Assembly: GCA_050084515.1 (NCBI GenBank)
Contig: CM114271.1
Coordinates: 2,852,001 to 2,916,000 of the forward strand
Direction of reading: 5' to 3'
DNA from: Blasia pusilla
Lineage: Eukaryota
Length of the DNA: 64,000 bases
Shown here: piece by piece, positions 7,093 through 57,452 of the stretch
Position numbering within the stretch: the first letter of the stretch is position 1
Layout of the letters: each line of letters opens with the position of its first letter
The notes under the pieces: generated by a model
What the model was told of the DNA's origin: nothing
The model's input: the letters and a program-made list of their open reading frames with translations, nothing else
The model's database searches: none
Program-made: the position numbers and the translations under genes

Positions 7093-7197
7093 GGCCACCT
7101 ATCCTCTCCTCATCGGCCTTTGGATCTAAGGACTTGCCATCGAAGTCTCAGCAGTATGGCTCTTCATAGCCAATAAGCCCAAATAGGCTTACGCGTG

Positions 7198-10439: not shown

Positions 10440-10720
10440 CGGGTACAACACTACTCCACCAACCAAGACGTCGTAGGACTCTCCATCGCTCTCCATCGGT
10501 CCTTGGCTTGGACCATAGACTTATCTATAGGATGTCTCGGGCGAATCCTCACCACGATCTCATGTCGGGTGATATACTATGTGGTACTCGCTCCACCCAA
10601 GGATGTCTGTATCCGGAATAGACAACGCTCTACATCGGCTCTCATCAAGCCCAATTCTCTAAATGTCGATTTCCCCAACATCAGGGATTGCGCTCTTGAA
10701 TCCAACAAGACGCAATGCAA
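10440..10720 (-). pseudogene. Aspartic protease, gypsy copy 1
   Basis: VLLDSRAQSLMLG (decayed LLDSGA) followed by FRIQTSLGG and a downstream YDVLVG-like motif. Confidence 0.7.
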
Positions 10721-12911: not shown

Positions 12912-13093
12912 TCAATCACTCCAACTATCATGCGGCACTCAATCTACACTCTCTCTCATTGAGAAGTGTGCTATGCAGCAACAAGCGGCATGGTGCAGCA
13001 AATCAACTACTGTCATATTATCTCATGAACAACACATACCCTCAACTCTGGACATCCCTCTCAGGTCTATGTCCCCTAAACCCATACATCAAC

Positions 13094-31145: not shown

Positions 31146-31810
31146 GTGAAGAGAAATATGTGCAATCCATCGAATTCATACGAGTTACACGAACATACGT
31201 CGAGAGAATTTTTTCTAACTTTCCAAACTTAACAAGTTGAAAACTCATGCAACTTGTTGGAATCCAACAGGTTACAACACCACACTCCCACAACCTTTAA
31301 TTGCAACCTGTCGATTTCAAACGGTTTGCAAATTGAGGCAACTTATCGGATTGCGACAAGTTGCATATTGATATAACTAGTCAAATTATGACAGGTTGCC
31401 AAACACCAATATTTGCAACCTCTTGGATTCAGACAAGTTGCAACATTATATTTAGACCTACTTTTTCTTGCAACCCGTCAGAGTCAAATAGGTTGCAGAC
31501 CGAGGCAATGTCACGTTTTGACGAGTTTCCAAACACTAATATTTGTAACACATCGGATTCAGATGGGTTCCAACCCAACGGAATCCAACATGTTACACCT
31601 GCGAAATGGAAAGGAGAAAATGTTTTACTCACCTTCCGCATAAACCTTCCCCATTGCCTCATACGAACACTCCACCAAATCAACCAAAAACACAATTCTT
31701 AATATTTCCCCTCAATTGCATGCTTCGCCACCACACATGAAGCTCTTCTTAGTACTCTATGGCTTGTTTCAAGATTTTGTTGTCCTTACAACGTTGTAGT
31801 AGAGCAGGGT

Positions 31811-33096
31811 TGTCGTATCGAGAGCTTTTCTTTGAGTAAGGGTGGACTTTCTAGTTGCGGCAGACGTGATTGATGCAAGGTGATATCTCTAAGAAGTTCG
31901 TTTTTTTCAAAACATAATTATTATATACATTCTCCATTCTCTCACGACAGGAATCACAATTGGTAGTGTCAAGGCGATCACGTCTTTATAATATTGAACA
32001 TCGGAATTCCTAACTATGAAGTCCCTATAAACTAATTTACGCTTGAGCACAAAAAAAATAGCACAACTAGTGTTAAATCCTACTTGAGCAGACCTATTAA
32101 CATCCATGGATCGCTATATAAGGACATACAAAGTACAATCCCACGTCCTTCCGTACGGGATAATATGAAAAATCACCAGAGTTGGAGATTGCATAACGTG
32201 GTTCATGAATGCCTCCCCAAAGAGATAAACTAGATAATGAGTAAACTAGTGCCTATCTCCAAAGAGAATCTTGAAGTAGTACGGATTAAGGAAAGGAAAA
32301 TTGGTTATGAATTGTGCTCTATCTCTATCCATCTTTAACGGACATCCTCAACTCTCCTCAAAATGGGTTTTGGTGGAACTGCTCTCCCAAGAGGAATAAT
32401 CTACTCTCATTGGGAAAATAAGAAGCCAAAACCATCCACTATCCTTAGTATGATAAAACTTCCCTAAGACGATAAGTCTCCTAAAATAACCATCTCATAT
32501 CAGACTCTTGAAACTCTCGAAGAATAGATCTTGACCAAGTTACTCTCTCAAGAGGGATAATCCAGTCTCATTGGAAAAGCAAGCAAGCCAATTCCATCCA
32601 TTCAAGAGTAACAAAGGGAGACTCAAGAAATGGAGTAGAAGATGATGAATCCTTGAAGGTCCCACCTCTTTATATACTCACTAAGAATCCTCAAGACTAC
32701 AAAATAGGGCTAATATTATTTTGTGTGCCAAATGGCTTCCTCTCAAGGCTTAGCCAATCCCATTTTGACACAAGTAAATTATATATTATCTCCTCCAGAA
32801 TATATTTATCAACTCACTTCATATCCTCCAAACTACCCCAACTAACCTAGCCACCAACCAATACTAATTTTGTTTTTCTTTCATTAATGCACAAATCCCA
32901 AAACTCTACTTGTATACTCTCATTTCTTATTTATCATCTATTTTCCTAAATTTGGGCCCACACAAATGAGCCATCCTAAAGAGGTTTAAACATGAAATTT
33001 TCATTTTCTTAACCTAGTTTACTTAATACTAATAAAACTCTCTCTAACACTTAGTGAGAGAGGAGTTTATATAGTGGATGATTTTATTATACGACA
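31811..33096. mobile_element. Solo LTR (family E) inserted in the MULE-like transposase
   Basis: TGTCGTATCGAGAGC...TATACGACA; transposase frame continues on both sides; no clear TSD. Confidence 0.82.
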
Positions 33097-36000
33097 ACGT
33101 GCTCCGTTATCTTATTCTCCTTGATGCAAGATTTTATGTAGCAAGTCACGGACTATTGCCAATGGAAAGCATTCAACCTCTCCCATTTTGGCTCAGCTTC
33201 ATCTTCCCATAACGCCTCCTTGATAGCAATCCATCTTGATTGTGCATTGTCCTCCATGAGCCTACAAATTTCAGAGGATGCCTTTTTTTTCTGTCACCAT
33301 CTCTAGTAGGAGTAACAAACATATCTTCAAGCTTCCAACATCATCTGCCTTTATCTCACAAAAAAATATGGTTTAGAGTCCCTTCTTCACATGGTTTTAA
33401 ACGTGTGCACCTATGGTCAATCATTCATTAAAAACCCTATAATAAGTATCAAAGCTAACTCAACTTCAAAATAGATCTTCTCCTTCCCTCATTCTGTCAA
33501 CAAGATCAACGCCACTAAACGGCCTTGTAGTAGATATTTTGAAGACATAAGCATTGGATCCCTCGCCTCCTTGGCCCATGAATTATGATATCTGAATAAA
33601 TAGAAACTTGGAGTTTGCTTTGATCCTGGAAATGGCATCCATCTCTAAGATCTTTCCATAAAGTATTCGTATTTTCCGCAGTAAGTTCTTGAAGCATTGA
33701 GGATCAACCAGAGAGGCAAGATTTTCCCATAGTTGTTTCTCCTCAACTCTGCGATCTCTCCTTGGCCACGTATTCCCAACAGTTGATCGCAAATTTATGA
33801 TACCATCGTCAATTTTATATTTTTGTGCTTAGATTCTGTAGAGTCTATATATACCTCCGACACTTTCTTGGCCACATTATTCTTGATGTGTTTGTGAATG
33901 GCACTAGTGACAAGATGAGTGTGAGACCCAACATGAACATGTGGCTTGATGTACTCAAACATAGAAGTGGAGTCGTGCACTATGAAAAAATATAAGCGGG
34001 ACATGCTCCAACGCAAAAGGAGGAGGCTTGACAATGAGGACATTGATGGCCACCCGACAGTATAGCTGCACCCACCTCATAAGGAGTCTCTGCATTTTTT
34101 GGGGAAAAATTGTGAGGCATTGACTTCCCTATTCTATTCTAGGTAAGGGCATCAAGGACTTCTACATTCCAAGGCTACCACGCATTGGCAACAAGACACA
34201 ATCCAAGGATCACTTGGGATGGAAGCAGTCGTTTGGTGTAGTTTACACCATCGATGAAAATCGGAGTTTTGGTCCTTACCCTTAACCCATCCTCCATCTT
34301 GCTTCTGAGAAGGACCAAAAAGTGGAGGCAACTCGAAAACATAGTTTCTATCATAAGTGGTTGGCAACTCATCCACAAGAATGTGCTTGAAGATTTTAAA
34401 GGGGAGAATGACAAAAGCAAACTATTCCCTCAAACTCGCAATAGGAATGTGTATGCAGATGTTGGGTCTAAGTTGTTTCCAACAGATCCCCTGAGGTTGA
34501 AAACATCAAAAATATCTATATCTTGAACCAAATTGTCACAAATCTGTAAGTTTGGAGTCGAAATTGGATCGGCAGAAGCAAGGGTGGCAAATATGGAACT
34601 TGGAGCACTCGTAGGTTGTAGATAATTGAGATAAAATAGAGTGGGATTTAGAGACAAGCCATAGATTATGTATTGTCTATTGGAGTAAGGTGAGAGATTC
34701 CATACTTTGGAATCTCCAATCTTGGGCTCACCTTACTTTGGAGCCTCTCATCTGTTCCATCCATCCTGACATCCTTCGAAGCAAATATGGTTCCAATCTC
34801 GAGAAGAAATTGGAGTGAAAGAAAATATTCTTCAATTAATATATGAGCATTGCCAACTTACGCCCGAATTATCTCCGATTGAGGAAGGGCCGCTAGATGA
34901 CTGCCATATGTGAATTTCACATAATTTTCCATCTGGATATGACAACATAGATGATTCCATTAGAAAGGATGGGAATAAGAATAAGAATTTTAATGTTAAA
35001 TTTACAGTGAACAGTGTCCGAGTATATTATTATAAAAGTTATCTACAAGCAGTTGGTAGTTAGGTTGAACCATCACTTGCTGATTAGACCAAGCGATGAG
35101 GAATATTCCTACAACAAATCCATGGGTGTGCAACCCGTCAGAACCCGACGGATTGCCATGGGATTGCCTTTAAGAGTTGGCATGAAAGCGAGTTAGTGAT
35201 GAAATGCAATCCGTCGGACTCCGATGGATTGCATGGGGTGATGTTGGTCAACCTGTTGCATTTTGACCGATAGTTGGGCTTGTCTCAGTTGGACTCAAAA
35301 GTATAAGGCAACCCATCGGATTTGGGGGCTGATATTATGGCAGAAGAGAGGAGAAAAAGAGAGAAGAGTCTCTCTTCTAAAAAAAGGAAAAAAAATCCTT
35401 AATTATAACCTCTCTTCAAAACTTTATTCTATTTTTGAAGATTCTCCACTACTTCAAATGCAAGAAATGTTTAGAAGAGAGATCTAAGTGGTAGAGATTG
35501 GGGCAAAAACTAACCTCATTTTTTCAGACCAAGATGTGAAGTTGGAAATGTGAAGCCCTCTTCAAACATGCTTAAATCACTTTATGTGTAAGCCACATCA
35601 AGGAGTGAAGGGTATCAGAGTTCTTACAAAATTATTTGTGTAAACCAAACAATAAGATAAGGGTCATTCTTCTTAATAGAGGGAAAGATTTTGGGCTCTT
35701 AATCCAAGACTCCCAGCCTCATTCCTAACACTTTGTCAGAATTTAACAACCAGTCATAACAATCTTGGAGAAATAGGAACTCAAAGAGAGGAGAGGTGAT
35801 TTGTTGAGAGGTTTACTCACAGACTCCTTTATTGCTTCATTATAGTTTGTCAAAAATCTGATTGTTTCAAGAAATGGATATTAAAGATGCACTTGAACTT
35901 GGAAGCAGAGGATACACAAAGTAGTAAAGAAATAGTGATGATTTGAGGTTGGAAAAAAATGGAGGATTGCAAAGTTTCCAAGAATGACTCAGAACACTAG

Positions 36001-37689
36001 AAGGCCGCATATGACATGCAAGACTTGGCTAAGCAATGGCTATATGGAGTCTTTTATTAAATTCATGGGACTTTGGCAAGTGTGGTTGGACACAGATGTC
36101 AGAAGTTAAGGAAGCCAACAAGTTGAAGGAAACGAGAACTCGTTGTGGGAGTAGCGAAAAATCATTTGAGACTAATGGAATTGAATTTTGATAATTGACC
36201 AATCCAAAAGTCAAGCCTACAAGGGTTGAAATCCCACAAGTTGCACGACATGAGAAGAGAAGTTTGCAACCTCTCAAAAGATTAGTTTGAAGTGGAAGAA
36301 CAAGAGGAAAAGATATAAGCATTGATCCAGGCAATGCAACTTGTCAGAATCCGATAGGTTGCATGACTTGACAAGTAGAGGAAGAGTTTTAAGATATGAC
36401 TAATTAGAGATAAGGAAAAAAGGATATCAAGAAAGACATGACCACTGAAAAAAACAAACAAAATAACCTGACCTACATGTGAAGATATGAGAGGAAACCC
36501 ATAGGTTCTATTCTGATGAGAGATGAGAAAAAAGAAAGAGCGATTGAAATTAATAGAAGGCAATAATTTATACTTGCAACATGTCAGAATCAGATAGGTT
36601 GCATGATAGGAACAAGAAAGGAAATATCAATATGAAGAATCGTTAGGAAACCCATAGGTTCCATTTAGACATGCAATCCGTCGGAATCCGACACGTTGCA
36701 AGATATGACAAGAACTTGTGAGAACCTGGCAGAAATCGACTAGTTGCAAGACCTATCATATTTGAGCTTGCTACTCATGAAAAAACCTTGGTGAAAAAAA
36801 ATAAAAGGAATGAAGGTAGTAATATGAAATTCAGAGTAGGTAGTCATCCAGACTTGTAACCTTTCGGAATCCGACAGGTTGAAGGAAACCTCCACAAGTT
36901 GCGTTCAAACATGCAACCCATCGGAATCCAACAGGTTGTCAGACATTACAAGAAGAGAAATATTTGTGAGATATGGCTAATTTGTCGGAAAGACAAGACA
37001 GGTTAACATGAACACATGTGCAACACGTTGGAATCCAATACGTTGCAAGAGATGACAACTAAAGAATTTCAGGAGACATCTTCACATCAATATGATAAAA
37101 TCTCAGAAAACTTAGAGACACCAACATACTCCCATTTTGACTTGCAACCCGTCAAAATTTGACGGGTTGCAAGACATACCATCTGTCCAAAAGAGATTAC
37201 TAGAGTAGAAAATTGATTTCAACATGTCGGAATCCAAGAACTCCAATAACATCATACCATTAAAAGAAAGAAGAGCTTGTGAAAAAAAATCAAGTTCCTT
37301 TATTCCAATCCATTTGTAACCCGCATATTTAAATTCGATTTCCTAAACTAGAAAATCTAATCTATGATCTCTTTTGCCTCGTCATCTGCAAAAATATTCC
37401 TAACTTAGATTGGTTCTTGTACAATGGACTTCACTAGGCTCTCCAATGGGTGTTCTTAGGGGGACAAGGCTCTCAAATTCCCCTTCTTTCTCAATCCCCA
37501 TCTAAAATATTGAAGAGGAAGAACACCAAATCGATCCCATGCGACCCGAGATAAGTCCCAACACCTGCCCCGACAAGTGATCTTGTATGCTCTGCAAAGG
37601 GACACCCATCTATAATCAATACGTGCTCCTTCGCTGGAAACCACTACAGCCCAACAGCAAAACGCTTGAAATCCAAGGCACCACGCACT

Positions 37690-40600
37690 CACTCAGGAGT
37701 ATCAGGGAGCTCTTCCAAAATCACCGTTGGCCTTGTCCACCCGATTTTTGGAATGAAAGGTAGTGGCAATGGTGTCACCACCAATGGCTCTCCTAACGCT
37801 GCATTTTGACCTGGAGGCGACTTGTACTCTCCCAATTGCCTCTCGTACTCCGCCTTTTCCTCCTTGCAAAGTGCAAATAGTTGCATCCTTAACTCGAGGC
37901 TGAAAGTGTTTCTTCCACTCCACTAGGCACCTCTAACACTCGCTCTAGAAATCCCCACTAAATCTAACACAAAGTCAATACGCCTCAAGCAGAGCTCCAT
38001 CAGGGTCTGCATGAGCGCCGGGGACTTTTCCTCCCTCCAACCAGCGGATCTCCTTCCTCCATGACAACTCCCAAGAGTGAATCGTACATGCTATAGAATG
38101 TGTAACCATTGTAGGCACGATCAATAGGATCCTGGATCTCAAAAACCTGGAATGTGTGCTCCGATCTGACAAAACAATACAAATACGAGTACTCAATCTT
38201 TGCACAAGAAAAAGGCACAATGATATTAGCTTTAAGGAGAAAGTGCTACGAGGATTGATTTTCCCATTAAGCAACCTGAAGGATTCCAACGAGTTGCAAG
38301 TGTAAGATTTTAGGTGCCTAGTTGTAGCAGTAGACAATAAAACTTTAGAGGGGTCCATGGAACTCGTCAAAATCCGACGGGTTGCTCTGCACCTCCTTGA
38401 ACAAGTCTCGATTTGCAACCCGTCGGGTTCCGATGGGTTGCACATTCCGTATTTGGGTCTTTCTCCAACCTATTGAAATCTGACCGGTTGTAGATAATGT
38501 TGCACGTGCTCACTGAAAAAGGTGATTTGGACTCCCTTAACCCAAATATTCGCAGGCTAATTTTTCAAACTTACCCAGAGTTGATTTGTTGCAGATCTCA
38601 ACAAGTAGTCATTCTTGACTATCCAAGATTGTGTTGTCTGCCATGTCGTTTGACACACTGCATGTTGAAGAGCTGATCTTCGCTGTCGCTAGTCAAAATA
38701 AGGAAACATCCCTTGTCACTTAGATACGCATTGGCGCACGAAAACATCAATGTGATCTGGTCGTATGTGAAGGGAGAGTTCCAACCCATGACAATATCTT
38801 GTGGGTTATCGTCCCACAATCTGAATCCCAACGGTAAATCTACAATCATGAGGTCAACTGCAACCTCCTCAGCTACCCCATTGACAATCCATGGGGTGTG
38901 GCCGTTTCGGATGAGCTTTCGTCTTAGGATTGTCAGCTTCTCCAGGGCATGGATGGACTCCTAACTTGAAATTTTTTCCAATTCAGCAGAGAGGTCTGAT
39001 GGAGCAAGATAGTGACCTTTTTCATTACATTGCTCTCCTTGCCCACGGATGATGAAGTATATATCACATTTCCGTTTTCTCCCTTAGAGGAACCCAACGT
39101 TTCTCTCTTTCACTTCACGCAAGTTTGGTGCCTGTTGGTCGCGGTCTGTGTCACCTCGGAATCTACATGCATCATTTGTGGGCCTCCCTTTGCTATCCCT
39201 CACGCTTGGAAGAACCAGCCTTGAATTCCCTTGATCACATACCCTTCGGTTTCAGCCCCGCTATGGACTTGTGCTTGGCTGTTACCACCTTTCACACCTG
39301 ATCTGCCGTCTCGATTGCTTGTGCCTCCGCATCACCATCAAAGTACTCCTCAACCTTCAAGAGGTTGGGGATGTCCCCCCTTGTAGGCTACAACTACATT
39401 ATAGAAGGCTCCTAGCGTCTGGTTGCTAAACTCCTCTAGGCCATTGAAGTCCAACCAAATTGGACAGTTTAGATATTCCCAAGGGCTTATCTACTCAGCC
39501 ATCTCCACGACGTACATGGAGAATTCATCCCCATTCGGATGAGCAACCCACAATTTGCAGGCGGCAGGTTACTTTCTCCATGTACTTGCATTGACACACG
39601 AGATGAAAAACTTGTACACCATTCCTTGGGGAGCTTGTTGGCAAGAGGACTCAAGAGCCTCCTCAAGAAGGTCTCCTTTCTTTTTGGAAAAATTACCATT
39701 TTTTAGATCGCCAATCTCGTCATTGAGATCCCCCTATGGGAGAATATGATTCTTGAACATTGTCCGGAAGCCAGGGTTCTTCACTAGCTTATCTCATATT
39801 TCATTCAACCGTAGCTGGTAATCCTCGGCCAACTCAAGGCTGGCCTCCTCCAAAATAGGCTTGATTTTCCTAAGCTTGGCTTGACGACACACAATCATCA
39901 ATTTTCCGAGCAACCACAATGCATCCCAGAAGGACCATTCTCTCAACCACTAAGAGATAACATGATCCGAGACCCCTGATGGGTAGTGTGCCATCTTCTT
40001 CTCGGCCTCTGTCCTCTCGAGACTGATCTTCATAAGACTAATTCAGCTGAATTTTGAAATTCCTGAAAGTGCAAACCTGTGAATACGATCCAATGACACC
40101 TTCTCTCCGATACGGCCAAGGGGATCCTCATCCCTCTTTCTTTGGCATTTAATGATGGCTTTCAACTCCTTGTAGAAGTATGGGCTGAGCTCGGGGTTTA
40201 GCAAGGCGATGCAATGCTACATCTTGGTGGTTGTGTACTTAGTCGCTACCAACACAGCACCCTAGATGAACTTCACCCTCTCAGTAGCTGAAACCAGGCC
40301 TTCTCCCTATGCTCCATCTCCAATGTTGTGCTTCTCTTTGCTGCTTGGATTTTAGATCAGCACAAAATTGTGATAGCTGTATCTTGGGAGATGTATGTGT
40401 TCGCCCAAGTCTTCATCTTGATATGTGCTCCTTTAGCGAGCATCACATTGACCAACTCCTCTCCTAGGAATCCTTTGTATTGCCCAAGGTGCGTTGTAAG
40501 CACTTTCTTCACTCTGCCGCACTCTTGGATCCAATGTTGCATGAGATTCCCTTCCCACACAATCCTGCAAGGTTCAAGGTTTTTTTAGAATTTATATCAC

Positions 40601-42200
40601 ATGCAACCCGTTGGTTTCCGACAGGTTGCAAAAAGACTAACACTACCATAGAGAAAAAATTAGATCAAATAATATAACCTTTGCCTACTAAGTGTTGGAG
40701 TCCGACAGGTTGCAATTTTTTTTCTAGAGAGCCTCTATGGCTGATGGCACATGGAGTCGTGGCAGCCCTTTGGAGTCCGACATGTTGCACGACCATGAAG
40801 TAAGTTGTTCCAAGATGCAACCTATAGGGATCCAATTGGTTGCATCCAGTCCCTATCGTAGTCCCAAAGACTTCGAATCCCTTGGTTTTTCGATTGACAG
40901 ATAGGCCTTTTTGCAACCCGTCAGACTCTGACGGGTTGCAATTTCCCATCAACTCATAGGGGCTAGCATAATCTTTGACCCTAAAGCAACCCGTCAGACA
41001 TCAAAAGGTTGCTTTTGGTCCAAAATCATGCAACTCTAGGATAAATTGTGTGGGAGTTGCAACTTGTCGCACTCTGATGGGTTGCCTTGGAACTAATCTA
41101 GTCCAAATAGGAACCCTCATGGAAAAAGAATGCAACATGTCAGAATCCGATGGATTGCACTTTGGCCACATAAGAAGACTAATCATCCATGGCTTTGGAA
41201 TCCGTCGGACTCCAATGGGTTGCCCTTGTACCTTACTAGTCTAACTAAGGGACCTTTGGGAATATAAAATGCAATCCATCAGAGTCGGGCGGGTTGCATA
41301 TTGGCCAAGGAAGAAGTCCTGGCATGAATGGCTTTGCAACCCGTCGAAGTCTGACGAGTTGGAAGCTCAACCAAATTCAACAAACGAGAAAAAAAACACT
41401 TAAGTGTTCATTGAGTGCATGACCATCTCCACCGTGGCCATGTGATTTGGGAAGGGATGGAGGATGATTTCCCTCACGCAAAAATGCACCTCCAATGAAT
41501 TTGGGCACTCCGATGCAAACTAGGGCCACGCCATGAATCTGTGGTTCCCATCCCAGATGAAGAAGTACAAGTTCTGCATCCACTTGTATTCCGTTCTTGC
41601 AATTTCTTTTTGGAACTCTATGTCCTTCATTCTCCAAAACTCATCCAGGTTCTCGAGGTCGTCCTCAGTGATCAAGGCCTACATTCCATGTTCATCATAA
41701 GGTTGAACATAGAAAGGAGGAAAGCTATCTACACATGAAGCTCTTGCAATTGACTGCTTCAACTTGGTGATGTCTTTGTCGGACTGAATTTATCGAACGT
41801 ATTCCATTGTTCAAAGTCTGCAGTGAGGAATCCCTGGTGCCTTGGGGCCATCCACCACTGCCATTTGCTTCACAACCTACAAGAATTTCAAAAATTTCAA
41901 CTACATAAGTTTTCCTCAATGCAAGCCATTCGAATGCACACCAAAAATTGTCGATCATTGCTTACCCTATAAAAAATTGGGTCTATGTCGAGGCCGGCAA
42001 GGTGCTCTAGTGCAACAACAAGTAATTGCACTAGATATCCCTCAACGTTGAAAAGCTCCATTTCTTCAACAAGGCTTAGCAAAGAGACGTCTCTTCTTCT
42101 TCCTCAATCAAAGATAATTCGAGCGAAACTTGGTGACTCTCACGTACCTGTTGAAGAAGATTTCCTCTCACTCCAATTTCTTCTCCACATTGGAACCATC
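37690..42200 (-). pseudogene. Spliced, decayed gene for a ParB/Srx-like domain fused to a beta-class amino (N6A/N4C) DNA methyltransferase-like domain
   Basis: IPHCRL..VR..DITKLK..FYV..FFIWDGNHRFMAW (about 41525-41830); VDLMIVDLPLG..W..ANAYLSDKGCFLIL (38700-38860); EKSPALMQTLMELC..DFVLDLVGISRAS..GRNTFSLEL (37890-38030); putative introns 41877-41965, about 40565-41402 and 38276-38574. Confidence 0.72.
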
Positions 42201-42399
42201 TTTGTTTCCAAGGATGTCGGGGTTGATGGAATGGATGACGGGATAGGAGAAACAGTCTAGCCAGAGATTGGAGACTCCAAAGTCTGGAATCTCTTACCTT
42301 CTTTAATGGATAATTTAGAGTTTATGGTCTACCTCTGAACCCCACTCCAACTCATCTTGACGGTCTGAAACCTATGAGCTAGTGCTCCGAGCTCCATGT

Positions 42400-43930
42400 T
42401 TGGCACCATTGCTTTTGCCGATGCAGCATTGATTCCAAACTCACAAGTTCGTGACAATGTGGTTTAAGCTAAAGATATTCTGGATGTCGTCGATCTCAAA
42501 GGATCTGTTAGAAACATATCAGACCCAAAATTTGCTTACTCTTTCATGCTGCGAGTTTCGGGGAATAGTTTTCTTTCGTCTCTACCCTTGAAAATGTTCA
42601 CGCACATTCTTGTGAATGAGCGCTAGCCAGGTATGATGGAAATTGTATTTTTGAGCTTCCTCCACTTTTTGGTCTTGCTAAGAAGAAAGATGGAGGACGC
42701 TTGAAGGGTATGGATAGAAAATCTGACAATCATCGATGGTGTAGACAAAAATGGACAAGTTCTTCGATCCCGGGTGGTCGTTGGACTCGTTGCCAATACG
42801 TTAGAGCCTTAGAGTGTAGAAGTGATCGATGCCCTTTCCTCGAGTGGAACGGGGTTGTCAATACCTCATAGTTCCCTCCTAAAAATGAAGAAACGCCTTA
42901 CGCAGTCGGTGCGACCATACTGTCGGATTGCCATCGATGTCCTCATTGTCAAGCCTCCCCTTTATGCATTGGAGCGTATCCCGCTTACATGTTTTTCATA
43001 GTGCATGACTACAATTCTACGTTCGATTACACCGGGTTGTGTATTCATGTTTGGTCTCACACTCATCCTGTCACAGGTGCCATTCAAAGACACATCAAGG
43101 AGGATGTGGCCAAGAAAGTGGCGGAGGTATACAAAAACTCACCAAGATCTAAGCTCGGAGTGATCAAACTAACAACGGCAACAAAAATCTGCGATCAACT
43201 ATTCAGAATACTTGGCCAAGGGAAGATGACAGTGGAAGAACAACTATGGGGAAATCTTGCTTTTCTGGTTGATCCTCAATGCTTCACGAACTTGCTGCGG
43301 CAGATAAGAATACTTGATGGAAAGACCGCAGAGATGGATGCCATCGCCAGGATCAAAGCAAACCCCAGGTTTACATTTATCCAGAGACGGCAATTCATGG
43401 GCCAAGGAGGCGAGGAATCCACAACTTATGTTTTCAAAATGTATACTACATGTACGGTCGTCTAGTGGCATGGATCTTATTGACAGAATGAGGGAAGGAG
43501 AAGATCTATTTGGGAGCTCGGTTAGCTTTGATATTTTCTAGAGGGTGTTGAATGGGTGGTTGACCATGGGTGCACATGTTTATGACCATGTGGAGAAGGG
43601 ACTCAAAACCATTTTTGTCTGTGAGGTAAAAGCAGAATATGTTGGCAGCTTGAAGATGTGCTGGTTACTTCTATTGGAGGTGGTGAAGGAAAACAAAAGG
43701 CCACCTCATGAAATTTATGGGTTCATGGCGGACAATGCACAACCAAGATGGATTGCTATGAGGGAAGTGTTCTAGGATGGACAAGTTCAACCAGAAAGAC
43801 AGAGATTATATGCTTTCCATTGGCAACAGTCCGTGATTCGATATACGAAATCTTGCATTAAGGAGAATAAGAGAACGAAACACGTAGTTCTCCTAGAACG
43901 GTGCAAGGATAGCAAAAGATAGCAACCACA
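42400..43930 (+). pseudogene. MULE-like DDE transposase copy 2 (3' truncated)
   Basis: FELPPLFG..CPHCQ..H..HTHPV; VSFD..GWLTMGAHVYD; GFMADNAQ..W.AMREVF; AFHWQQSV; inverted homolog of 33100-34890. Confidence 0.78.
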
Positions 43931-44615
43931 ATTTGATTTTGATGTGCAAAGAATAGCAAAAGAATAGATATGAAGAACATGGGAATGGGGGAGATCCCAT
44001 TGGGAAGGTTGTCTAGCAAATTGTGGGGCAATAATATGACCACTCAATGCTATGAAGGGGACAACTAAGTCTAGCCCTAAAATGTATCCTTGGTCAAAGG
44101 AGAGGAGATAGGGTCAAATCTACCCAACAATGAGGACACCAACGAATTAGAGGAGCGAAGATATAATCGCTCTCGCCAAATAATAAGAAGCCAAAGGATA
44201 TGATAATGACTATGGCATGCTATCCCTCCGGCGAGACATCCGCTCGGGCCAATTACGTGCATCCATTCCATGGCTTTCCATACACAAGGCGCCTACTGCC
44301 CGGTGCCCGACAGCACCCTTCTGACCAATCTGAGCTCTCCAGTGAGCTGCCCGCACCAACCATCATCGGCCATATCCACTCCTCCACACCCACTGCCCGC
44401 TGCCCGATTCACTGCTCCCTCCAATGGAAATCCCCGCCTCAGCTGCCCGTTGTCCTTACTTGTTTGTTTCCGCCATAGCCACAGCCGATCGTTGCCCCGT
44501 GACTACGTTCAAAACCGATAGCCTTTCCTCGAAGGAGTTCGCGTTGAAGTGGGAAGTTGAATATCAGTACGCAGGCAATGCGGAAGTGAAATTTCGTCGT
44601 AGAAAGCATATCGGG

Positions 44616-45420
44616 ATGGCAGCGATTTCTGCGAGTTTCGTTGGAGTGGTGGCAGCGGCGGCTCCAGTTCAGGGGTCTTTGAACAAGGTAGGCCTCGGCA
44701 GGGTCCAATGTAGGCCGATGGCTGGCAATCGCTTCCCCAGTTTTGTGGTCAGGGCTTCAGAAACGGTCAAGCCCGCCGCACCGGCCGAGCAGAAAATTGC
44801 TGCACGGAACCGATCGGCCCCAAGCGTGGTGCGACTGTGAGTGATTTTGTTCTCTCCGCCATGAGCCATCTCGCGAATGTTATTATGTTGTGGAAGTGGA
44901 GAAAAAATGTCAGAGATAGGAAGTGAATATGTGGTGCTCTTACCTACAGCCGACGACTGGATGTGAGGAGTAGATGCGCATGCTTCTTTGGACGAGAGAA
45001 GGCCGATTTCAGACTCGTCCTAATTATGTCCATAATGAACCGAACGATCTATGTGAGTTTATTCGTGGATTGTCACTGTGTTACTTATATGCCGTTCTAT
45101 TATTTGCTGTTGTACTTCTGCCGCTCTGTCGCAGGTCAAGATTCTGCGCCGAGAGTCCTACTGGTTTAATGAAAACGGAAAGGTTGTAGCCGTCGACCAG
45201 GTAAGTTTTCCTTCTGTATTCTGCCCCCTCATATGGAATATTAGCGCTCCTTGTCTCCCCGACCTGTTGTTTTGGTCAAATCTGATTTCTCATACGCTGT
45301 TGTGACGTCGACGTTCAGACCCCAGGAGTCAGATATCCCGTGGTCGTGCGGTTCTCCAAGGTCAACTATGCTGGAATTTCCACGAACAATTACGCAATTG
45401 ACGAACTTGAGGACGTGTAG
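44616..45420 (+). pseudogene. psaE: Second psaE copy with a 1-nt deletion in exon 1 (exons 44616-44836, 45135-45200, 45319-45420)
   Basis: GCTGCACGGAAC versus GCTGCACCGGAAC in copy 1; exon 1 is 221 nt, giving a premature TAG in exon 2; splice sites intact. Confidence 0.85.
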
Positions 45421-48500: not shown

Positions 48501-51500
48501 GCCTGCAGGAACTACTGCTAAGCTCAGATCAACTGTACGGTCAATGTTCGGAAGATGACGTGGCGCACAGTTACGCATATAGTCCTTCCAAACCATACCA
48601 TCACGTCCCTCCAATAAGAGAACCAGGATGACAAAATCTCACGCACCCTCAAGATAGTGCGCCTTGCAGTCACGTTGTGGGTGCCGTCTACTGCAAGTAG
48701 ACAAAGTCTCCCTGATGAATATTCTGGATAATAGGTCGATAACCACCTCCCCGAATAGTCGCATACCTCAACGTATCTTGATGTTGCGCAATCGCCAAGT
48801 TCTCAAAAGCCATGGGCATCACACTCCAAAACAACTCAACCCTTTGAGAACATGCTCGCATCCATACATCAGGGTCATGAAGGTTCAACACCTCACCAAC
48901 ATCTCGACCAATGGCCGCAGGTCATTCCGACTCTCGGCCATAAAGAAGCAAATACGGTGAGAAAGATGCTAAGGATGTCTGCATGTTGAATCTGCATCCC
49001 ATCGCCAACCACAGCAACTAGAGGTCCCAATCTCCTAGGTGACCTCTCTGCAAGCCATAATTGCGGAATCCTCTCTTCATCGTCTCCACAACCCTCTCTG
49101 CTAGTCCATCCGCCACAGGATGATCTCGCGAAGTGGTGCGGTGGTCGATCAGCGCCTGATCACGCAAGGCCTGAAACTCCCCACGAAACTCCGTACCCTA
49201 GTTTGTCAACACCTCAATTGGTGCGCACTAATGACTTAGCACTCGATCTAGGAAGGCATTCGCTACTCCCTTACTTTCTTTGTCAGGCAATGCAACCAAC
49301 TCTATCTATTTCGAGAAGTGCTCAACCATCACCAACACATAACGACTATGGCACTCCGTCAAAGGCAAAGGTCCTACAAAATCCAAACTCCATCTATAAC
49401 CTAAACCCATGATCGAAAGTGGATGCAACTATGGATTTGGAGCATTGAACAATGCTCGGACTCGATCACACACCATGCACCTGGCAACAAACTGCCGAAT
49501 GTCAATCTGCATGCGTCGCCACCAATACTGTATCTAGAGCATGTTGTACGTCCGCTTCACTCCAAAATGACCCAACTCCTCGTGGGCATGAGGCACCAAA
49601 CGTGCTCTCTGCAAAGGATGAGGCACTACATGTACTCTACCATCCTCCCACACTCGCAACACATGTGTCCTCTCCCACCGAAACCGTCTGGCTCACTGTA
49701 GGATCCAATTCCGCTCTCTAGCACCCATTGTGCTCGCGACGCTACCAATACGCAAGTACTCCAAGACCACTCCATTGTCTTGGCCACATGTCGTCTCCTC
49801 ACGGACCTCTGGATCTAAGGACTCTCCATCAGACCTCGCCATCGAAGTCTCAGCTTTCTAGCTCTCCATAGCCTACAAGCCCAAATAGGCTGACGTGTGC
49901 CATCCTGGCGCCAACTTCTCATCACTCTCACCATGCCAACGAGCTCCACTCGCATCTCGCTGACTCGAACATGGGTTATGGCTGAAACTATTGGCATCCT
50001 CGTTGAGCGTCCCAGTCTATGCACCACTTGGAAGTCATACTCTTGCAACAAAAGAGCCCACCTCGCAAGCTTTCTGTAAGCTTGTCAGAATCCATCAACC
50101 ACTTAAGTGGTTGATGATTAGTAATGATGGTAAAGGGGTTTCGGAATAGATAACATCTAAAATGTGCGATAGCCCACACCGTAGCCAAGCACTCACCCTC
50201 ATACACGCTATATTTTTCCTCTACAGCGTTGTTCAATCGACTAGCGTAAGCCACCACGAATTCCCTATCATCATTGTCATGCTAGGTGTGCATTGCTCCA
50301 AGCCCCAACATGCTCCAATTGCTATGCAATTGGAAAGGGCGCCCCTTGATCGGTCTCCTCAATATAGGCGCGGACATCAATCTGTCCTTGAGCAGCTGAA
50401 ATGCTCTCTCTTGCTCATCCCCTCAATGCCACTCCTGATCCATCTTGGTCAACAAGGTTAGCGGCTTCGCAATGAAACTAGAATCCTTGACGTATCGTCG
50501 ATAGAAGTTTTCCAATCCCATGAATGCACAAACTCCACTTACACCTGTAGGGCGTGAAATAGCCTCTACCTTTATCTGCTGCATACCAAGGACCCCTGGA
50601 TATATAGTATGACCCAAGTATTCAACTTGGTCGTAGAAGAACTTGCACTTGCTTGGATGTAGCTTCAGCCCATGTAACTACAATCGTCAAAACACCTCCT
50701 CTAGATGTCGCTCATGCTCCTCAACCGTGGCGCTAAAGACAGCGATGTCATCAATATAACACCTAGCAAACTCCAAACTTGCCAAGATCCTATCCATTAC
50801 CCTCTGAAACTCAGCCGGGGCATTCTTTAACCCGAATGGTAAGAACCACCACTAGTACAAACAATCCTTCCGGTGAGGATCGATGCCCCAAAATGCCGTC
50901 TTCTGCCTGTCCTCCAATCTGATAGGCAGCTGATGGTATCCGGCTCGTAAATCCAATGAATTGAAGACCTTTGCATGCCCAATCGCATCAAAGATCTCCT
51001 CAGGGGTGGGCATGGCATACCTATTGGACTTTGTCTGCCGATTGATAGGTCCATAATCTCCACACATCCGCCTATCCGTCCAATTTCCATGCACATCCTT
51101 CTTGGCGGGCATGATAGTGGCAGATGCATCCTCTCCATCCGACATCTCCACTAGTCCTGGTCCAACCAAGTCATGCTCCTACTATGAATCAAAGCCCTCT
51201 CCATGTTAGTGTACCTGTAGGGTCGTCAAAAGATCGGTGTGTCACTTGAAAACTCAATGCGGATCCCTGGACCCTTTAGCGTACCCAAATCCTACATGCT
51301 AAATGCAAAACAACTCCTATAACTCCTCAGGAACGGATGTATCCAGCGCCCCTCTCCTCCTATCAACTTAGGGCCCATGTCTAGCTCCCAAGTCTCCATT
51401 GTGACTATGGTAGGACTCTCTGGCGTGGGTGCAGGTGGTTGTTATGGTGCAACCCTGTCTCAGACAACACAACTCGACTGCTCTCTCCTGCAACCAACGT

Positions 51501-51719
51501 ACTGCAAAATTTGTCTCCATGTGTAGTACCCGCAAAGACGCTCAATGTTGTGGCTACCATCTCCTGGAGTACCTGCAAAACATCCCAAGAATTCCAAGGG
51601 TTTCTCTCCCGATCACCCCTAGTGTGTTGATCTCCTCGGGTCTCGCCCCCAGCCACTACCTCAACGGTCTCGGTAAGCATGGGGCTCACCAATACAATAG
51701 TTGTGATGTGTCGTATCCT

Positions 51720-52700
51720 CAAACGACGCTGCTCAGCTACTCCTAAGCTGAAAATCCATATCAAGCAGTTCACGTCCATCACCTGACCCAAGATATGACG
51801 TCGTGGTGCCTCTAATAGCAACAATTGTGCTGTCACTCCTGTGGGGAAATCCCATCGCTCGCTCTCGCTCATTGACATAGGGCCCCACCAACCTCTGTAC
51901 CTGGTCATCCCAAACAAGCCAGGTCCGGCCTCCTTGAATGCATATGAAGCGGGAAAACTCACAAATATAGGAAAGGCTGCCCGTGGCATGCCAATCTTGT
52001 TGACCACAATCAACGGCAGTCGATCATTGTGCCTCAGTGCCTATGATTGACGGCCCGGATCCAATATGGAATCCACCAACAACTAGGAGGGGCGCTCCAC
52101 TCGCGTATATGCCCTCCGCAACACCTCGTGTAGGACCAAGTTGGTCCACCAAAGACATGGGCGGTGTGCTCTAGAACCTACACTCACCTTATCTAACAAT
52201 ATTGTTGGGCCAATCCATGCGTGCACATGATGTGCACTCATCACCACGCGAGACCTCGAATTGCCCAAAATTGGCACATTCTCCAGAATGTATGCTAGAG
52301 AACGAGATTGATGCTCCTGCAAGTGTCGGAAAATCCGCATCATCTCCCAAAAAAACTTGGACAGCTTGTCAACTAACCTACTACCTTGTACAACACTCGA
52401 TTGGCCCTAACACGACCAACTAGCAATGACCAGATCTATGGCCCCTACCCGCTCCAAGTCCTACGCCCCCAACAATGAAATGTCCCCCGCTAGAGAGCTC
52501 TGGTATCCTTGGACAGTGGACTGAGACAACTAGTTGGGAAAAAGGAGGCGTAACAGCGCCACATGGTAAAGTGAAGCGCGCCTCACAACATCATCAATCT
52601 CCGCATACAAGTACTCCTCTATGCGTACTCCTGCCTGCAAAAAAACAGCTAACCTAGTGCTAATCCCTCCAAAGAGATCCAACACCCAAATACCCTCCTC
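51720..52700 (-). pseudogene. C5 DNA methyltransferase domain, copy 2
   Basis: VLDLFGGIS..YLYAEID; IDLVIASWSC*GQS; YILENVPILG; GSRAHRPCLWWTNL; FPTGVTA; RRHILGQVMDVNCL. Confidence 0.88.
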
Positions 52701-55700
52701 TAGGATGCACCACACAATCGGGGTGGTTTCCAAAGGGGTCATAATAGCACTCCTTGCTACCTTGCGTTCCTCTGACCCGTCACGCTCTGGTGCAAATATC
52801 TCGCTCCACGTGGTCTGCACATGCTCAATGGCTAAGCGTTGAAGCTCCTCAATTGAGCCCCAAAGCGGCACCTCTCCTCCATGGACTGATGCGGATACCA
52901 TGACACTCCTCTCCATAGAAATGTCAAGAACGGGAGTGTCCTTTCCATGGACGTGTCCCTCAATCAAATCACTAGGCCAAGTGATGGCACTGCTAATTGC
53001 TACTAAGGTTGCAATCTCTCCTGACCGGATCTCTATCATTGCATCTGTGAATCAAACGGGTAATGAGCTAAGGCGCCCAGCACCTGACTGCCATCTTGGT
53101 CTGTAAGATGGCAGTGAGTAATCCAAGGAAAGCCCCATGGGATACAACACTGCTCCATCAACCAAGACATCGAAGGACTCTGCATTAGTCACTATTGCCT
53201 TGGCTCGCACCATGGACTCATCTGTAGGATGTCCCTGGCGAATCCTTAGCACAACCTCCTGTCGGGTAATATACTATGTGGTACTCGCTCCATCCAAGGA
53301 TGTTTGTATCCGGAATGGACAACGCTCCACATCGGCCTTTGTCACGTCCAAACCTCTGAATGCCGCTTTCCCCAACACCAAGGGTTGCACCCCTAAATCC
53401 AAAAGACGAGCTACGGACTAAAAGCTCTACTTCCTAGACTCACAAACTGGAAGACCTCGCCCCGGTTATCCAAAAAAATAACACTAGAAGAAGCCATGGC
53501 ACGCTCTATTGCGGGTATCTCCGCCATCCTAGCAACCGCAGCCTACCATGAATCTGACGTGGACGGACCGAGCATAAGCTCCAAGAGTAGGTCCATCACC
53601 TCCTATGCAATCACCTTTGAATGTGATGCAAGAACTCCAACTCCACGCTCACACAACGTAGCGGCCAGCCAGAAAACCTCGGCGGGTGTACCTCCCAACG
53701 TCATAACATCGGAAGCAAAAAATAAAGGAGGGAAGAACACAACGGTGGCCGCCCCCAACAACGTGCTCGACATATGCCATTCCTAAGCATCAACAATAGG
53801 AGCAACACACTCGCTTCTCCCATCGTCCTCCGTGCCTGCACACCAACAATATCACCAAATCTCTGAGAACTCTGATTAGGACCGATCGATGGGATTCTCA
53901 TCGCCTCAGACAACGTGAAGGACTGAGGAATCCTGGTCTGTTTCCTAGCTTCTCCTCGCTATGGATCCAACTCTGCGGTTGCTCCACGCGTAACAACTGC
54001 GGAGGCCTCCATCTGGGCAACCCCACACATCGAACCATAATCCTCCATTCTTTTGGCGTCTCCATAAGACATCGATGCCACGGATCCGGCATCAAGTAAC
54101 CTCAATGCCATAGCGGCATCTGATGTATCTGAGCAACCATCCCAACCTCATGCCCGGTGTCTTCCTCGACGCGTCTAGGTGGTGGGACTCTACCTCCTCC
54201 ACGCGCAACTCCACCACCCCCTGGAGCAAATCCAACTCTTTGTCCCCCAACGGTATCACCTGGTGCATGACCTCTAGGCCCACTTGGACCGAAAACTTGC
54301 TCTGGTGCCCTCTCTGGCTCTCAATCCAAACGTAACTCATGGTGCAAGATAAAACATCTGGCGCGCGTGTGACCATACCTCTGAAAATAGTCACACCGAT
54401 AACCTCCTGGTGCAACACCATCTCCTCCTCCATGCTGAGGCACGCAACGATGATTGTGACCAGTGCAATCGCGCTGATGATGGGCTCCACCACATGACCA
54501 ACAAGTAATCATAGGTGGCAGCTGCTGAGCCACATATGAAGGCGCAGGTTTTTGTGGCACGACCTCTCGGTATCCTTTGTAAGCTTGTGATGCCATAGAC
54601 CTATCTCGGAATCCACGTTGCTGCATTGGTGGTGTAGGCAATCGTGACTTCTCTCCCCCACAACCCATGGTGGCTACGGTCTCCTCCGCCATGTTGCGCT
54701 CAATGTTCTCGGCGGTCCTAAAAGCATCTCTCAACGTAGGGGAGGTGTTCATAAGAAGCAACCCCTCTTGCACACATGTCCAGTCGAGTATCGTGTACCA
54801 TATCTAGATAGTCATATTCTGTCACCCCTTGAATGACGTTAATCAATCGGCGCAAGCGAGTGTAGGCCTCACGCAAACTCTAACTCAGGTGCCTCTGGAA
54901 GTCATGGATGCTCCGTAACTTCTCCGTCCGCACCCCTTATTAGCTCGCCCTCAACTCAGCCAAGAACTCAACCAAGGGATTGAACCTAGGACGAACTCGA
55001 CTGAACGATGCAACTGCTCTAGTACGAGTCACCCCTCCTACAACATCAATGGTGGAGGAACCCTCTTCTGACTCCTCCTCCTTATCTGGAAACGGCTCAA
55101 TCCATGACACATAGTGCCCATGGGTCATAGTAGAGTCTTCAGGCCTCAATCTCATTGGCATATCTTTGCGAGAATCCATGGTAATTGTCCATGGATGCCC
55201 CCTCTAAATACTGGAACATTCCATTCCATGCTGTAAATGGGTTGAACTCTCTAAAGTTCCTAGCCCGCAGTGAGTCACACCAACTCTTAAACTCCACAAT
55301 GAAGTCGTGTAACTCTTTAGTGCCTATAGCACTCGAAAACCTACGCGGTCCTCTACCCGGGTCGTCCATCTCGTACGCCTAATTGGTAGGACCACTAAAT
55401 GTGTGCGGTGATCCAGTAACAACCTCCTCTACACTCTCCCCCTTGTCTGAAGATGACACAAAAGGAGATCGAGGTGGTCTCTCACGTGGAGACTCTTGAA
55501 ACCTCGCACCACTCCGGGTAAACCCTCTAGAGCTACTCTCAAGTCCACCACCTCGCCTCTCAAAGTCCCGGAAGGACGCGGTGATATCGATGACCCTTGT
55601 GCCCGTCTCACACGATCACTCTCAACCTTCCGAGTAATCACGCAATCACCCAATCTAACATGCGGTACTCAAGCGACACTCTCTCATTGAGACATGTGAT

Positions 55701-57452
55701 GTGCGGAAACAAGCGGCGTTGTGCGGAAAATTGTCTTCTGTCCTATCATCTCATGGACAGGGCACACCCTCAACTTTGGATATCCCACACAAGTCTATGT
55801 CCCCTAACCCATACATCAATGATGCTCTCAGCATCAGGCCGAAACCCAATATCCCAAATAACTGCCCAATACCCAGAAATCCCTAACACGTGTAGGGCAA
55901 AAGACCAGAATGATAACCTAACAACAAGTTTCGATGTTGCGCCTCAGCAACTTAAAAACCTCGACCCCAACTCGGTCGTGAAGACAACTCCTCCAAGCAG
56001 CAAGTCGTACTCCTCTAGTATTGACGATGCTCTAATCTCCTCAATGTGCGGTGCGAGTCCAGCAGTACGGTGCGGCACTCGCGACACGGAACCGCTACAA
56101 ACAGCACGGCACTCGGTAATAGGTTGCAAGACTCAGCGGAATGCCCTCCTCAACAACAAACACAATCTGCTCCTCAATGATGGTGTAGCTCGGCGATTGA
56201 GATGATGCAATGCGGCCACAAGCGACACGGCGCGGCAATCAGCGGCGCGTTGCGGCTATGGGCATCACGGCATGGTACTCGATCGTCCTTGAGCGGCTAC
56301 AAATCACGGCATAAAAAAGCGGATGGAACACTACGACCCCACAATCAAAAAATAAGAATGGTCGGCCGTAAACACAGGCAACCGCGGCGGTCTAGGATAG
56401 AGATTCAGATGTCCGGCTCTACGGGCGGCAGTAACACTGGGTCGGACGGAGCAGCGCACGGTTGCACGGCGGCTAACTATTTTTTCGGCACTAGAAGGCC
56501 CTGAAGCGTTGACAGACCACACAACATACAACCGCGGTACCAAGTGCATAGCCGGTTTGCGCGTCTCCGGGACAGTTGGCTAAGACGTAGTAGGACAGAT
56601 GTTATCCCCCGCCAAATTATTTTATATTTTTTTAAATATTTTTTTAAACTAGAATAATCCCCCGGGAAAATTGGATCTCCACTATCTTTCCTTACTTGAC
56701 AGCCCCCTGCTTGACAGGCCTGCAAATTGAATGCCTTACCACAAATCCCTCCTAAGATTGAGGGTCAACACCCCCCAAAAATGGGATCTACTCACCCTAC
56801 CTCCAAATAGCTGAATTCACTTCTCCTATCCACCAAGTAAACTGATTTTTTTTAACCTCTCAAGAAAGAATTTCTACCCAAAAATTTCAAATTTTCACTC
56901 ACACCTTGGAACGGTGGCTATGGCAACCCAACGAAAATGATCATAACTCCGTGGTCCAATCTCCAAATTGTGCACTTTTTCTTCAACAGCCTACACCACT
57001 TCCTAATCTATGACCTCCTCAATTAGCTTCTCCATTTGATTTTTCACCAAAAACTGACGATGACTGTCGTGCAACCCAAAGTCTCTTTCTCCTACGCAAA
57101 ATTTGGGAGCGCTTCCGCGCTGATTTCTCCCAAAGAAAATGTAAGACCTATGAAAATACAAATCAGCAAGCTACACGGTGCTCTCAAGAGCATCTGCATG
57201 GGGCAACTTGTCCCCATACTCAATTCTTATAAAAAATTGGGCAGCGCTTCCGCGCACCACTCTTCCACACAAAAAATCGGCGAAGGAAACATCAAAAGTG
57301 AGCGGCTCTTGCTCCAGTGAGCACTCCCATGAACCGCTGAATGGAAAATACGATCCCCAACTTGCAAAACCAGCGAGTGACTAGCGAGATCCCCCATGAA
57401 GCTCTCTCACTCAGCATTATCTCTTTGAAAATCAAGTAGATCCAATCTCTCT

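Follow-up and report, generated by a model that had tools for sequence, protein, structure and literature searches.

Modules for DNA modification or chromatin are known from several groups of mobile elements, for example from retrotransposons carrying methyltransferases (MTases) of the C5-cytosine or Dam type and from fungal KDZ/Plavaka elements carrying TET/JBP proteins. In Arabidopsis, the VANDAL transposons, which belong to the Mutator-like elements (MULEs), encode the anti-silencing proteins named VANC. Furthermore, a prokaryote-type enzyme, N4CMT, has reportedly been co-opted in bdelloid rotifers, and the Marchantia proteins MpDN4MT1a/b are active host enzymes of the beta class with a TSPPY motif. 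The most similar case comes from red algae, where DNA transposons (Plavaka/EnSpm in Bostrychia and Mutator in Chondrus crispus) carry accessory genes. One gene of the PAG2/PAG3 cassette combines PF01555 (InterPro) with a SET domain, another one joins a ParB-like N-terminus (HHpred E=0.29) to a 2-oxoglutarate (2OG) oxygenase, and arrays of inverted repeats beside the ParB-like gene are proposed by the authors as binding sites (10.1101/2025.02.11.637652). Hence, ParB-like and PF01555 accessory genes on a DNA transposon have a precedent. DNA MTases of the DAM type are also described on LTR (long terminal repeat) and DIRS retrotransposons (10.64898/2026.05.21.726589), and another study reports an MTase domain of DIRS1, in some cases predicted to be inactive, as well as few N6-adenine (N6A) MTases in land plants (PMC4738411). 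Here we describe a locus from Blasia pusilla that can be compared with these systems. It lies in a window of 64,000 nucleotides (contig CM114271.1 of assembly GCA_050084515.1, positions 2,852,001 to 2,916,000, forward strand), to which all positions below refer, and consists of a decayed minus-strand gene at 37689-41864 that stands head-to-head with a MULE-like transposase frame.

Our preferred explanation, to which we assign a probability of roughly one half, is that a MULE-type family possesses an accessory gene and that the window contains a dead copy of it, with a C-terminal module that derives from a beta-class MTase but has diverged strongly and is probably non-catalytic. An earlier sequence-only reading had seen here a MULE-like transposon with a divergent cargo gene for a ParB and amino-MTase fusion, which could mark its own DNA or act against silencing. 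The underlying observation is real and the interpretation is partly supported, being right in about half of its points; the cargo status and any self-marking function are what we infer from the observations below. Our search of the literature turned up no gene of this kind in DNA transposons of land plants, but supplements might list more.

Structure, decay and relatives of the gene

The pseudogene at 37689-41864 contains at least 11 in-frame stops and one frameshift. This copy is dead and thus cannot mark any DNA. All peptide motifs quoted in the sequence-only reading were found on the minus strand among the translated open reading frames (ORFs), and reading through stops, as it had proposed, is indeed necessary: the ParB-like part has five stops, the region 40207-39392 has six, and a frame change follows near 38650-38665. 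Exon 1, the ParB-like part (41404-41864), contains in translation KLKQSI... and FFIWDGNHRFMAW, the latter inside a minus-strand ORF at 41520-41678. The DGNHR frame reads through a TAG into FASECPNSLEVHFCVREIIL, and four of the five stops in these 163 codons come after the first ATG (41864-41862). The middle region (39392-40564), which is predicted to be helical, is in a frame unlike that of exon 1 and includes the six stops just mentioned. It is followed by the N-terminal half of the MTase-like module (38575-38960), in which VDLMIVDLPLG stands at the position of motif IV, followed by AYLSDKGCFLIL and WIVKND...RSATNQLW. The stretch VDLMIVDLPLG...AYLSDKGCFLI falls inside an ORF of 113 aa at 38619-38960, and the frame change near 38650-38665 lies within a conserved block of this half. 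The C-terminal half (37689-38090) offers EKSPALMQTLMEL as motif X, DFVLDLVGIS at the motif I position and GRNTFSLEL at the motif II position. Here, EKSPALMQTLMELC..DFVLDLVG (37923-38090) and GRNTFSLEL (37689-37922) share one frame with a single TAG, the only in-frame one of this half, between them, and the frame ends with a TGA at 37689-37691.

The sequence shows two candidate spliceosomal introns. Candidate intron 1 (about 40565-41403, phase 2) has the degenerate donor TTAAGT and the acceptor CTTGCAG and contains about 8 copies of a 29-nt palindrome described below, and candidate intron 2 (38091-38574, phase 0) reads GTAAGT...TATAG with two of these palindromes inside. Both gene models from Riccia introduced below end exactly where candidate intron 2 (38574-38091) starts. 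A sequencing contig at 40375-40634, about 86% alike, reaches 70 nt into candidate intron 1, but the run, presumed to be RNA and with 11 contigs on the stretch, may be DNA and nothing is concluded from it. Judged by the splice-site-like sequences and the ends of the Riccia models, it is fair to read the gene as intron-bearing, or "intronised", and exon 1 and the MTase-like part were presumably joined in one transcript.

An exhaustive phmmer search with the motif IV region among 1.84 billion representatives yielded five proteins at E<=0.001. Three of them were discarded as spurious, since they are long internal-repeat proteins with 4-11 matched stretches each. The other two, KAL3687003.1 from Riccia sorocarpa (488 aa) and KAL2653794.1 from Riccia fluitans (305 aa), are true relatives; both are liverwort proteins annotated as "hypothetical" at most, each is the sole member of its own cluster, and their gene models contain neither a Pfam domain nor a transposase domain (E<=10). 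In tblastn, KAL3687003.1 matched the window collinearly, with residues 37-288 on 40207-39392 (E=1.3e-14), residues 372-459 on 38903-38631 (E=5.7e-10) and, in another frame, residues 455-486 on 38664-38569 (E=0.009). Word-based protein searches found nothing for the 113-aa exon among longer proteins, and for KAL3687003.1 among proteins near its own length only the query itself. The residues D393, L394, P395, L400, W401 and N404 are invariant in all three sequences, i.e. the window gene and the two Riccia proteins, and across the whole three-way alignment D-L-P, L-W, N, W-N, F..A, D.GC and N are unchanged.

The gene is multi-copy in the genome. In one sequencing run, 1624 contigs share at least 80% identity with 32800-44200; 68 of these reach 99% while the other 1556 stay below, and four positions of the gene body (37736, 38887, 40445 and 40517) show another letter in 6-11 contigs of one run. 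Summed over contigs, the depth of the arms described below and of 41.2-42.3 kb greatly exceeds that of 35.5-41.2 kb, but such a depth does not give a copy number and was left unused. Taken together with the Riccia relatives, the sequences suggest that this gene is a member of a small streptophyte family, which is repeated, has so far escaped annotation and has been kept between distant lineages.

Methyltransferase-like and ParB-like features

For the comparison with MTases we used a hidden Markov model (HMM) of the PF01555 type, built from 41 sequences (E. coli YhdJ and 40 non-redundant of 89 YhdJ-matching ORFs in IMG/VR loci), of which the three ORFs that were checked all matched PF01555 itself at 1e-31 to 6e-37; the pieces of the gene were aligned with all filters off. 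Residues 22-74 of the C-terminal piece fall on positions 220-272 of this model (KP..L, VLD..G.S, GR....EL) with 6.1 bits, a score reached by none of 1000 shuffles, and residues 387-483 of KAL3687003.1 on positions 61-148, from motif IV to the W.K strand, with 6.0 bits (1 of 1000 shuffles). The joined reading, i.e. frame-corrected and with the intron skipped, aligns collinearly to positions 58-138 and then 220-271 in the circularly permuted motif order IV, X, I. Its 8.1 bits are weak, and were reached neither by 1000 segment shuffles (maximum 5.8) nor by 1000 joins of other window ORFs (maximum 6.0). Moreover, hhalign of the family block against the MTase alignment placed DLP on DPPY over 107 columns (P=0.0053), and in the ESM Atlas the nearest clusters of the 113-aa exon carry MTS, UPF0020 and Eco57I at 0.85-0.89, values which are a lead only, with the ten best family-bearing matches all within one family or clan.

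Taken as single ORFs, the MTase-like motifs do not rise above chance; they do so only when collinear, as a set. In a scan of the 876 window ORFs with the PF01555-type HMM, the ORF at 37926-38090 ranked third with E=4.2, which is chance level. As a side observation, the top-scoring ORF (63527-63733, minus strand, model positions 239-256) lies inside another retrotransposon-like repeat and is probably a chance match.

The most serious alternative is that the resemblances to MTases and to ParB are chance or convergent motifs and the gene is a transposon or repeat ORF of unrelated fold. A set of results weighs against our MTase assignment and in favour of this alternative. Every library search was blank: Pfam gave no match at E<=1 in the three minus-strand frames of 37.6-42.1 kb and none at E<=10 in the exons or in either Riccia relative, so that the profile check against PF01555 proposed in the sequence-only reading came out negative in exons, read-through frames and relatives alike, with the gathering score not reached; MT-A70 (PF05063) was not matched in Pfam either. 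Against PDB sequences, the family profile found two unrelated matches (E 0.49 and 1.3) and no MTase, and the C-terminal piece a chance match only. In the single-ORF scan, which gave chance-level scores, the best of the 876 ORFs (5.2 bits, E=0.55) is unrelated and the 113-aa exon was outside the top 15, and the HMM of a phage ParB_N-MTase fusion family gave only -0.6 bits on the C-terminal piece. The hhalign probability was only 6.8%, the ESM Atlas scores stayed below 0.9, and an AlphaFold2 model of KAL3687003.1 from the 3-row alignment was unusable with a predicted local distance difference test (pLDDT) of 37.8 and a predicted template modelling score (pTM) of 0.22; the strand-helix-strand-helix arrangement around DLP which it displays is MTase-like and carries no weight. 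Finally, the family-alignment pattern combined with tblastn found no relative in metagenome, prokaryote-genome or viral contigs, and tblastn of phage records with KAL3687003.1 gave six records, all at E>=5 and none a methylase, i.e. chance matches. Nevertheless, three separate pieces align where they should in the model and in the expected order and their joined score exceeds all of 2000 controls, an independent Riccia protein matches the same model region with a score that one of 1000 shuffles reaches, and the best family-bearing ESM Atlas matches converge on one family or clan. We therefore consider the chance explanation unlikely, though it deserves to be kept in mind; if it held, the locus would merely be a decayed repeat ORF in a transposon nest.

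Hence, the claim of a beta-class amino-MTase stands in so far as the C-terminal third aligns weakly and collinearly, motif IV first and then X-I, and falls short in so far as no Pfam, PDB-sequence or structure match exists. The METHYLTRANSFERASE reading, in which a beta-class amino-MTase, or a closely allied one of the MT-A70-like kind, was the ancestor of the module, appears quite probable to us from these alignments. The catalytic (D/N/S)-P-P-(Y/F/W/H) is absent, a further point against an MTase: the three members have DLPL, DLPT and DLPK, in which the second proline and the aromatic residue are lost, and the family motif is a conserved DLP-x4-LW(N/D)(D/E)N in place of (D/N/S)PP(Y/F/W). Since DLP is kept in three of three members, it is a family feature and not decay of the window copy, which bears out for motif IV the earlier caveat of a decayed enzyme or pseudoenzyme. 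At the motif I position (FxGxG), LVGISRAS is found in the sole copy that holds it, the pseudogene, as the Riccia gene models end earlier. The stretch between the two MTase-like halves comprises about 25 residues compared to about 70 model positions.

The ParB reading starts from a motif. In the ParB/Srx families, a hydrophobic strand leads into a GxxR or DGxHR box, and an L..SI helix precedes them. Such a box, strand and helix are present in exon 1, where LYFFIWDGNHRFMAW is preceded by KLKQSIA about 55 residues upstream, with about 40 extra residues between the two elements; we estimate that the DG.HR pentapeptide alone would be expected about 0.6 times by chance in the six frames of 64 kb. 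The earlier assignment thus holds for the DGNHR motif and finds no profile support in Pfam or in two HMMs of our own, results that speak against it: PF02195 (ParB/Srx) was not matched in the ParB-like part, a ParB_N HMM cut from the phage fusion family gave -1.1 bits (E=0.14 for one target) with shuffles up to 9.3, a weak negative, because this HMM is narrow and represents one phage fusion family, and the HMM of the whole phage ParB_N-MTase fusion (17 non-redundant of 83 ORFs) found nothing in this part. In IMG/VR, the viral ORFs L050:3704-5296 (531 aa, SPPY) and L040:1691-3235 (515 aa, DPPY) match YhdJ and contain sub-threshold ParB_N matches of 24.9 and 16.8 bits, respectively; the former has 242 relatives in IMG/VR (pattern and tblastn). 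The prior for a ParB domain is raised by such fusions of ParB_N-like and PF01555 parts in viral contigs, sub-threshold as they are, and by the red-algal precedent that pairs both modules; the exon 1 product may bind DNA in a ParB-like manner.

Linkage to the MULE-like arms and the palindromes

The gene is flanked on one side by a right MULE-like arm (42099-43965, plus strand), in which an upstream region is followed by a CxxC...HxH stretch at 42872-43465 and an RNase-H-like/MULE-like stretch at 43308-43922. Its transposase-like frame runs on the plus strand from 42620-43465 to 43308-43922 and diverges from the gene; the head-to-head arrangement claimed earlier is therefore real, with a distance of within about 0.75 kb. 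These frames resemble the front half of a MULE transposase, with CxxC...HxH followed by D...D...C..H, and the frame stops soon after C..H. In the ESM Atlas, clusters carrying PF10551 (in 15% and 72% of their members) and PF21056 (in 85%) matched the right arm at 0.90-0.91 and 0.87, a lead that agrees with the earlier naming of a MULE-like transposase, but Pfam was empty on all three frames of the arm, and a word-based search of the right-arm ORF against longer proteins found none. The MULE identity of the arms, as judged from these models, is a lead only.

A left MULE-like arm (33095-34887, minus strand) is an inverted copy of 42099-43888; the match to 34887-33094 is 77.4% identical over 1806 columns. 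The match of 34790-34890 to 42090-42200 noticed before is real and includes 34748-34887 versus 42099-42238 at 80%. From this match it had been argued that the same junction of gene and transposase is preserved in the inverted copy and that their pairing is family structure. However, the inverted homology ends at 42099/34887, 235 bp upstream of the first ATG (41864) of the ParB-like frame, no ParB-MTase gene adjoins the left arm, and tblastn with five gene pieces found no second gene copy in the window. Since the homology stops short of the gene and no second copy exists here, the argument from family structure fails: the inverted copy gives no evidence of linkage, and the adjacency amounts to one of two chances.

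The left arm is cut at its 3' end (33094/33095) by a high-copy segment A', and a paralogue of A' ends at the same base; the right arm is 77 bp longer, up to a low-copy duplicated segment B'. Other genomic copies run past 33100, the outer end of the left arm, as seen from loose ends in two sequencing runs, and their 25-nt continuation is absent from the window. As the arms are 3'-truncated and genomic copies extend beyond them, the arms are not termini. We had considered the arms as long terminal inverted repeats (TIRs) of a 10.8-kb element, an idea which had rested on paralogues A and B of the segments A' and B' being 1165 bp apart elsewhere in the window; it was rejected, because a high-copy segment interrupts the left arm, its right counterpart is 77 bp longer and genomic copies continue beyond the arm end. 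MULEs generally have TIRs flanked by a target-site duplication (TSD) of 9-11 bp. At this locus no TIR or TSD delimits an element, and the flanks ATTATACGA and TTCTCCTAG differ.

A 29-nt palindrome with the consensus TGCAACCCGTCGGA-A-TCCGACGGGTTGCA occurs in the sequence scan in about 20 dispersed copies on 31248-41363 and nowhere else in the 64 kb (37 strand-matches versus 0 expected). The copies cluster at 31.2-31.5, 35.1-35.2, 36.3-37.2, 38.3-38.4 and 40.6-41.4 kb, i.e. in both candidate introns, in the 3' flank of the gene and beside the left arm. Paired cells amount to 86%, and covariation is weakly above that of shuffles; these values were reached by 9 of 500 shuffles for the paired percentage and by 29 of 500 for the covariation score. 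Tandem arrays were not detected by TRF in 30.5-44.2 kb. The palindromes might serve as binding sites, represent a small foldback repeat or give rise to hairpin RNA.

These data bear on a second alternative, namely that the MTase-like family is real but no MULE cargo, and instead a separate repeat or a host-derived multi-copy gene that came to lie amid transposon fragments by chance. What speaks for it, and likewise against the cargo status, is that the gene adjoins one of the two MULE-like arms, that the element has no TIR or TSD, that the window is pieced together from repeats and segmental duplications, and that the Riccia gene models lack a transposase domain; in addition, the arms differ about neutrally, with a ratio of non-synonymous to synonymous differences (pN/pS) of 0.50-0.60 compared to 0.63-0.95 in control frames. 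On the other hand, the gene diverges from a transposase-like frame at short distance, the palindromes are common to candidate introns, 3' flank and left-arm side and are confined to this part of the 64 kb, and the gene body is multi-copy. We thus rate a chance position among transposon fragments as rather unlikely, and the gene would most likely be an accessory gene, or "cargo", in a family of MULE-type DNA transposons. As such, its protein could bind repeated sites, here the 29-nt palindromes, in its own element, by analogy to PAG2/PAG3 and VANC.

Although the motif order is that of the beta class, fusions of ParB_N-like and PF01555 parts occur in viral contigs with sub-threshold ParB_N (24.9 and 16.8 bits), active co-opted beta-class enzymes with TSPPY are described from Marchantia, and red-algal transposons have PF01555 accessory genes (10.1101/2025.02.11.637652), it is improbable that intact copies encode an active ParB-fused N6A/N4-cytosine (N4C) DNA MTase that methylates its own transposon DNA or counters silencing, given DLP for DPPY without the aromatic in all three members including both Riccia models, LVGISRAS as motif I in the only copy holding it, the shortened inter-half stretch, a ParB part outside all profiles and a dead window copy. 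In the same way, the odds that intact copies would be standard DNA MTases are low, because motif IV has lost its second proline and its aromatic residue in three of three members and the segment between the halves has only about 25 residues. Because DLP replaces the catalytic motif and this segment is short, a standard N6A/N4C DNA MTase is not what we would expect of an intact protein of the accessory-gene family, but rather a pseudoenzyme that binds S-adenosylmethionine or DNA, or else a non-canonical enzyme.

Some observations concern the surroundings of the locus. An old segmental duplication relates 15.7-22.1 kb to 30.9-45.7 kb in three segments of the same order: 15843-16046/30972-31145 (67%), 17984-19264/31810-33094 (78%) and 20429-22147/43966-45705 (90%). 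Where a 10.9-kb block with both arms and the gene stands in the second copy, 1165 unrelated bases are found in the first one. In the 90% segment, an ORF at 44346-44840 (plus strand) and 20939-21418 (plus strand) has a start that resembles a plastid transit peptide and no Pfam family; it may represent exon 1 of a host gene that was duplicated. Furthermore, two 6-kb repeats at 49782-55819 and 7093-13092 (minus strand), 81% alike, are retrotransposons (RVT_1 9.8e-28, RT_RNaseH_2 1.6e-24) and contain a decayed C5-cytosine-MTase-like stretch at 51696-53045 and 9000-10334. Its motifs are VLDLFGGIS, IADWPC.GQS or IASWSC.GQS, and ILENVP, and PF00145 matches it below threshold (E=0.018 and 0.022, 14.9 and 14.6 bits versus a cut-off of 22). 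These stretches resemble the reported DNA MTases borne by retrotransposons.

Comparison with known systems

The retrotransposon-borne MTases share with the gene described here that a mobile element carries a prokaryote-like DNA-modification module, in some cases predicted to be inactive. They differ in the MTase group (Dam or PCIF1-like), in the transposon class and in the architecture. The likeness to MpDN4MT1a/b and N4CMT consists in a prokaryotic-type beta-class module in a eukaryote, one host being a liverwort. However, those are host genes with an intact TSPPY and shown activity, whereas the gene family here has DLP and is repeated and decayed. MpDN4MT1a/b and N4CMT were not among the matches of the exhaustive phmmer search, and a relation at the sequence level is not detectable.

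With the beta-class enzymes of PF01555, i.e. E. coli YhdJ and the phage ParB_N-MTase fusions, the module shares the order IV, X, I, the helix after motif IV followed by a G-x-hydrophobic strand and W-x-K, and the C-terminal pattern KP...L...l, VLD..G.S and GR..x.xEL. It departs from them in having no library profile match, DLP instead of (D/N/S)PPY, the motif I glycines lost in the one copy seen, a very short middle segment, introns, and a helical region of about 400 residues upstream. The conserved DLP variant would be a natural case for what a beta-class MTase scaffold does without the base-stacking aromatic.

Regarding VANC and the VANDAL elements, the common ground is an element of the MULE superfamily with an extra gene that is thought to act on short repeated motifs of its own element. 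VANC has neither methyltransferase-like nor ParB-like features, so the likeness is conceptual, and palindrome binding by the protein described here is inferred only.

The red-algal PAG cassette also unites a DDE transposase with accessory genes, PF01555-type and ParB-like modules and inverted-repeat units, with most copies degenerate. In contrast, the ParB-like and MTase-like parts seem to reside in one gene here, PF01555 is not seen by Pfam, motif IV is DLP, no SET or 2OG family was found in the frames scanned at 34.9-42.1 kb, and the gene sits in a streptophyte next to a MULE-like neighbour; the comparison with PAG is one of described architecture. If a DNA transposon of streptophytes carried a related module, the strategy of elements with their own modification module would reach the land-plant lineage as well. 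A bolder and in our view doubtful version would have MULEs of the liverwort lineage carry an intronised accessory gene derived from phages or prokaryotes, whose ParB-like N-terminus binds the palindromes and whose DLP-type MTase modifies or shields the DNA of the element. If true, it would be the land-plant counterpart of the red-algal PAG cassette and, beside VANC, a second, independent self-targeting accessory protein of MULEs.

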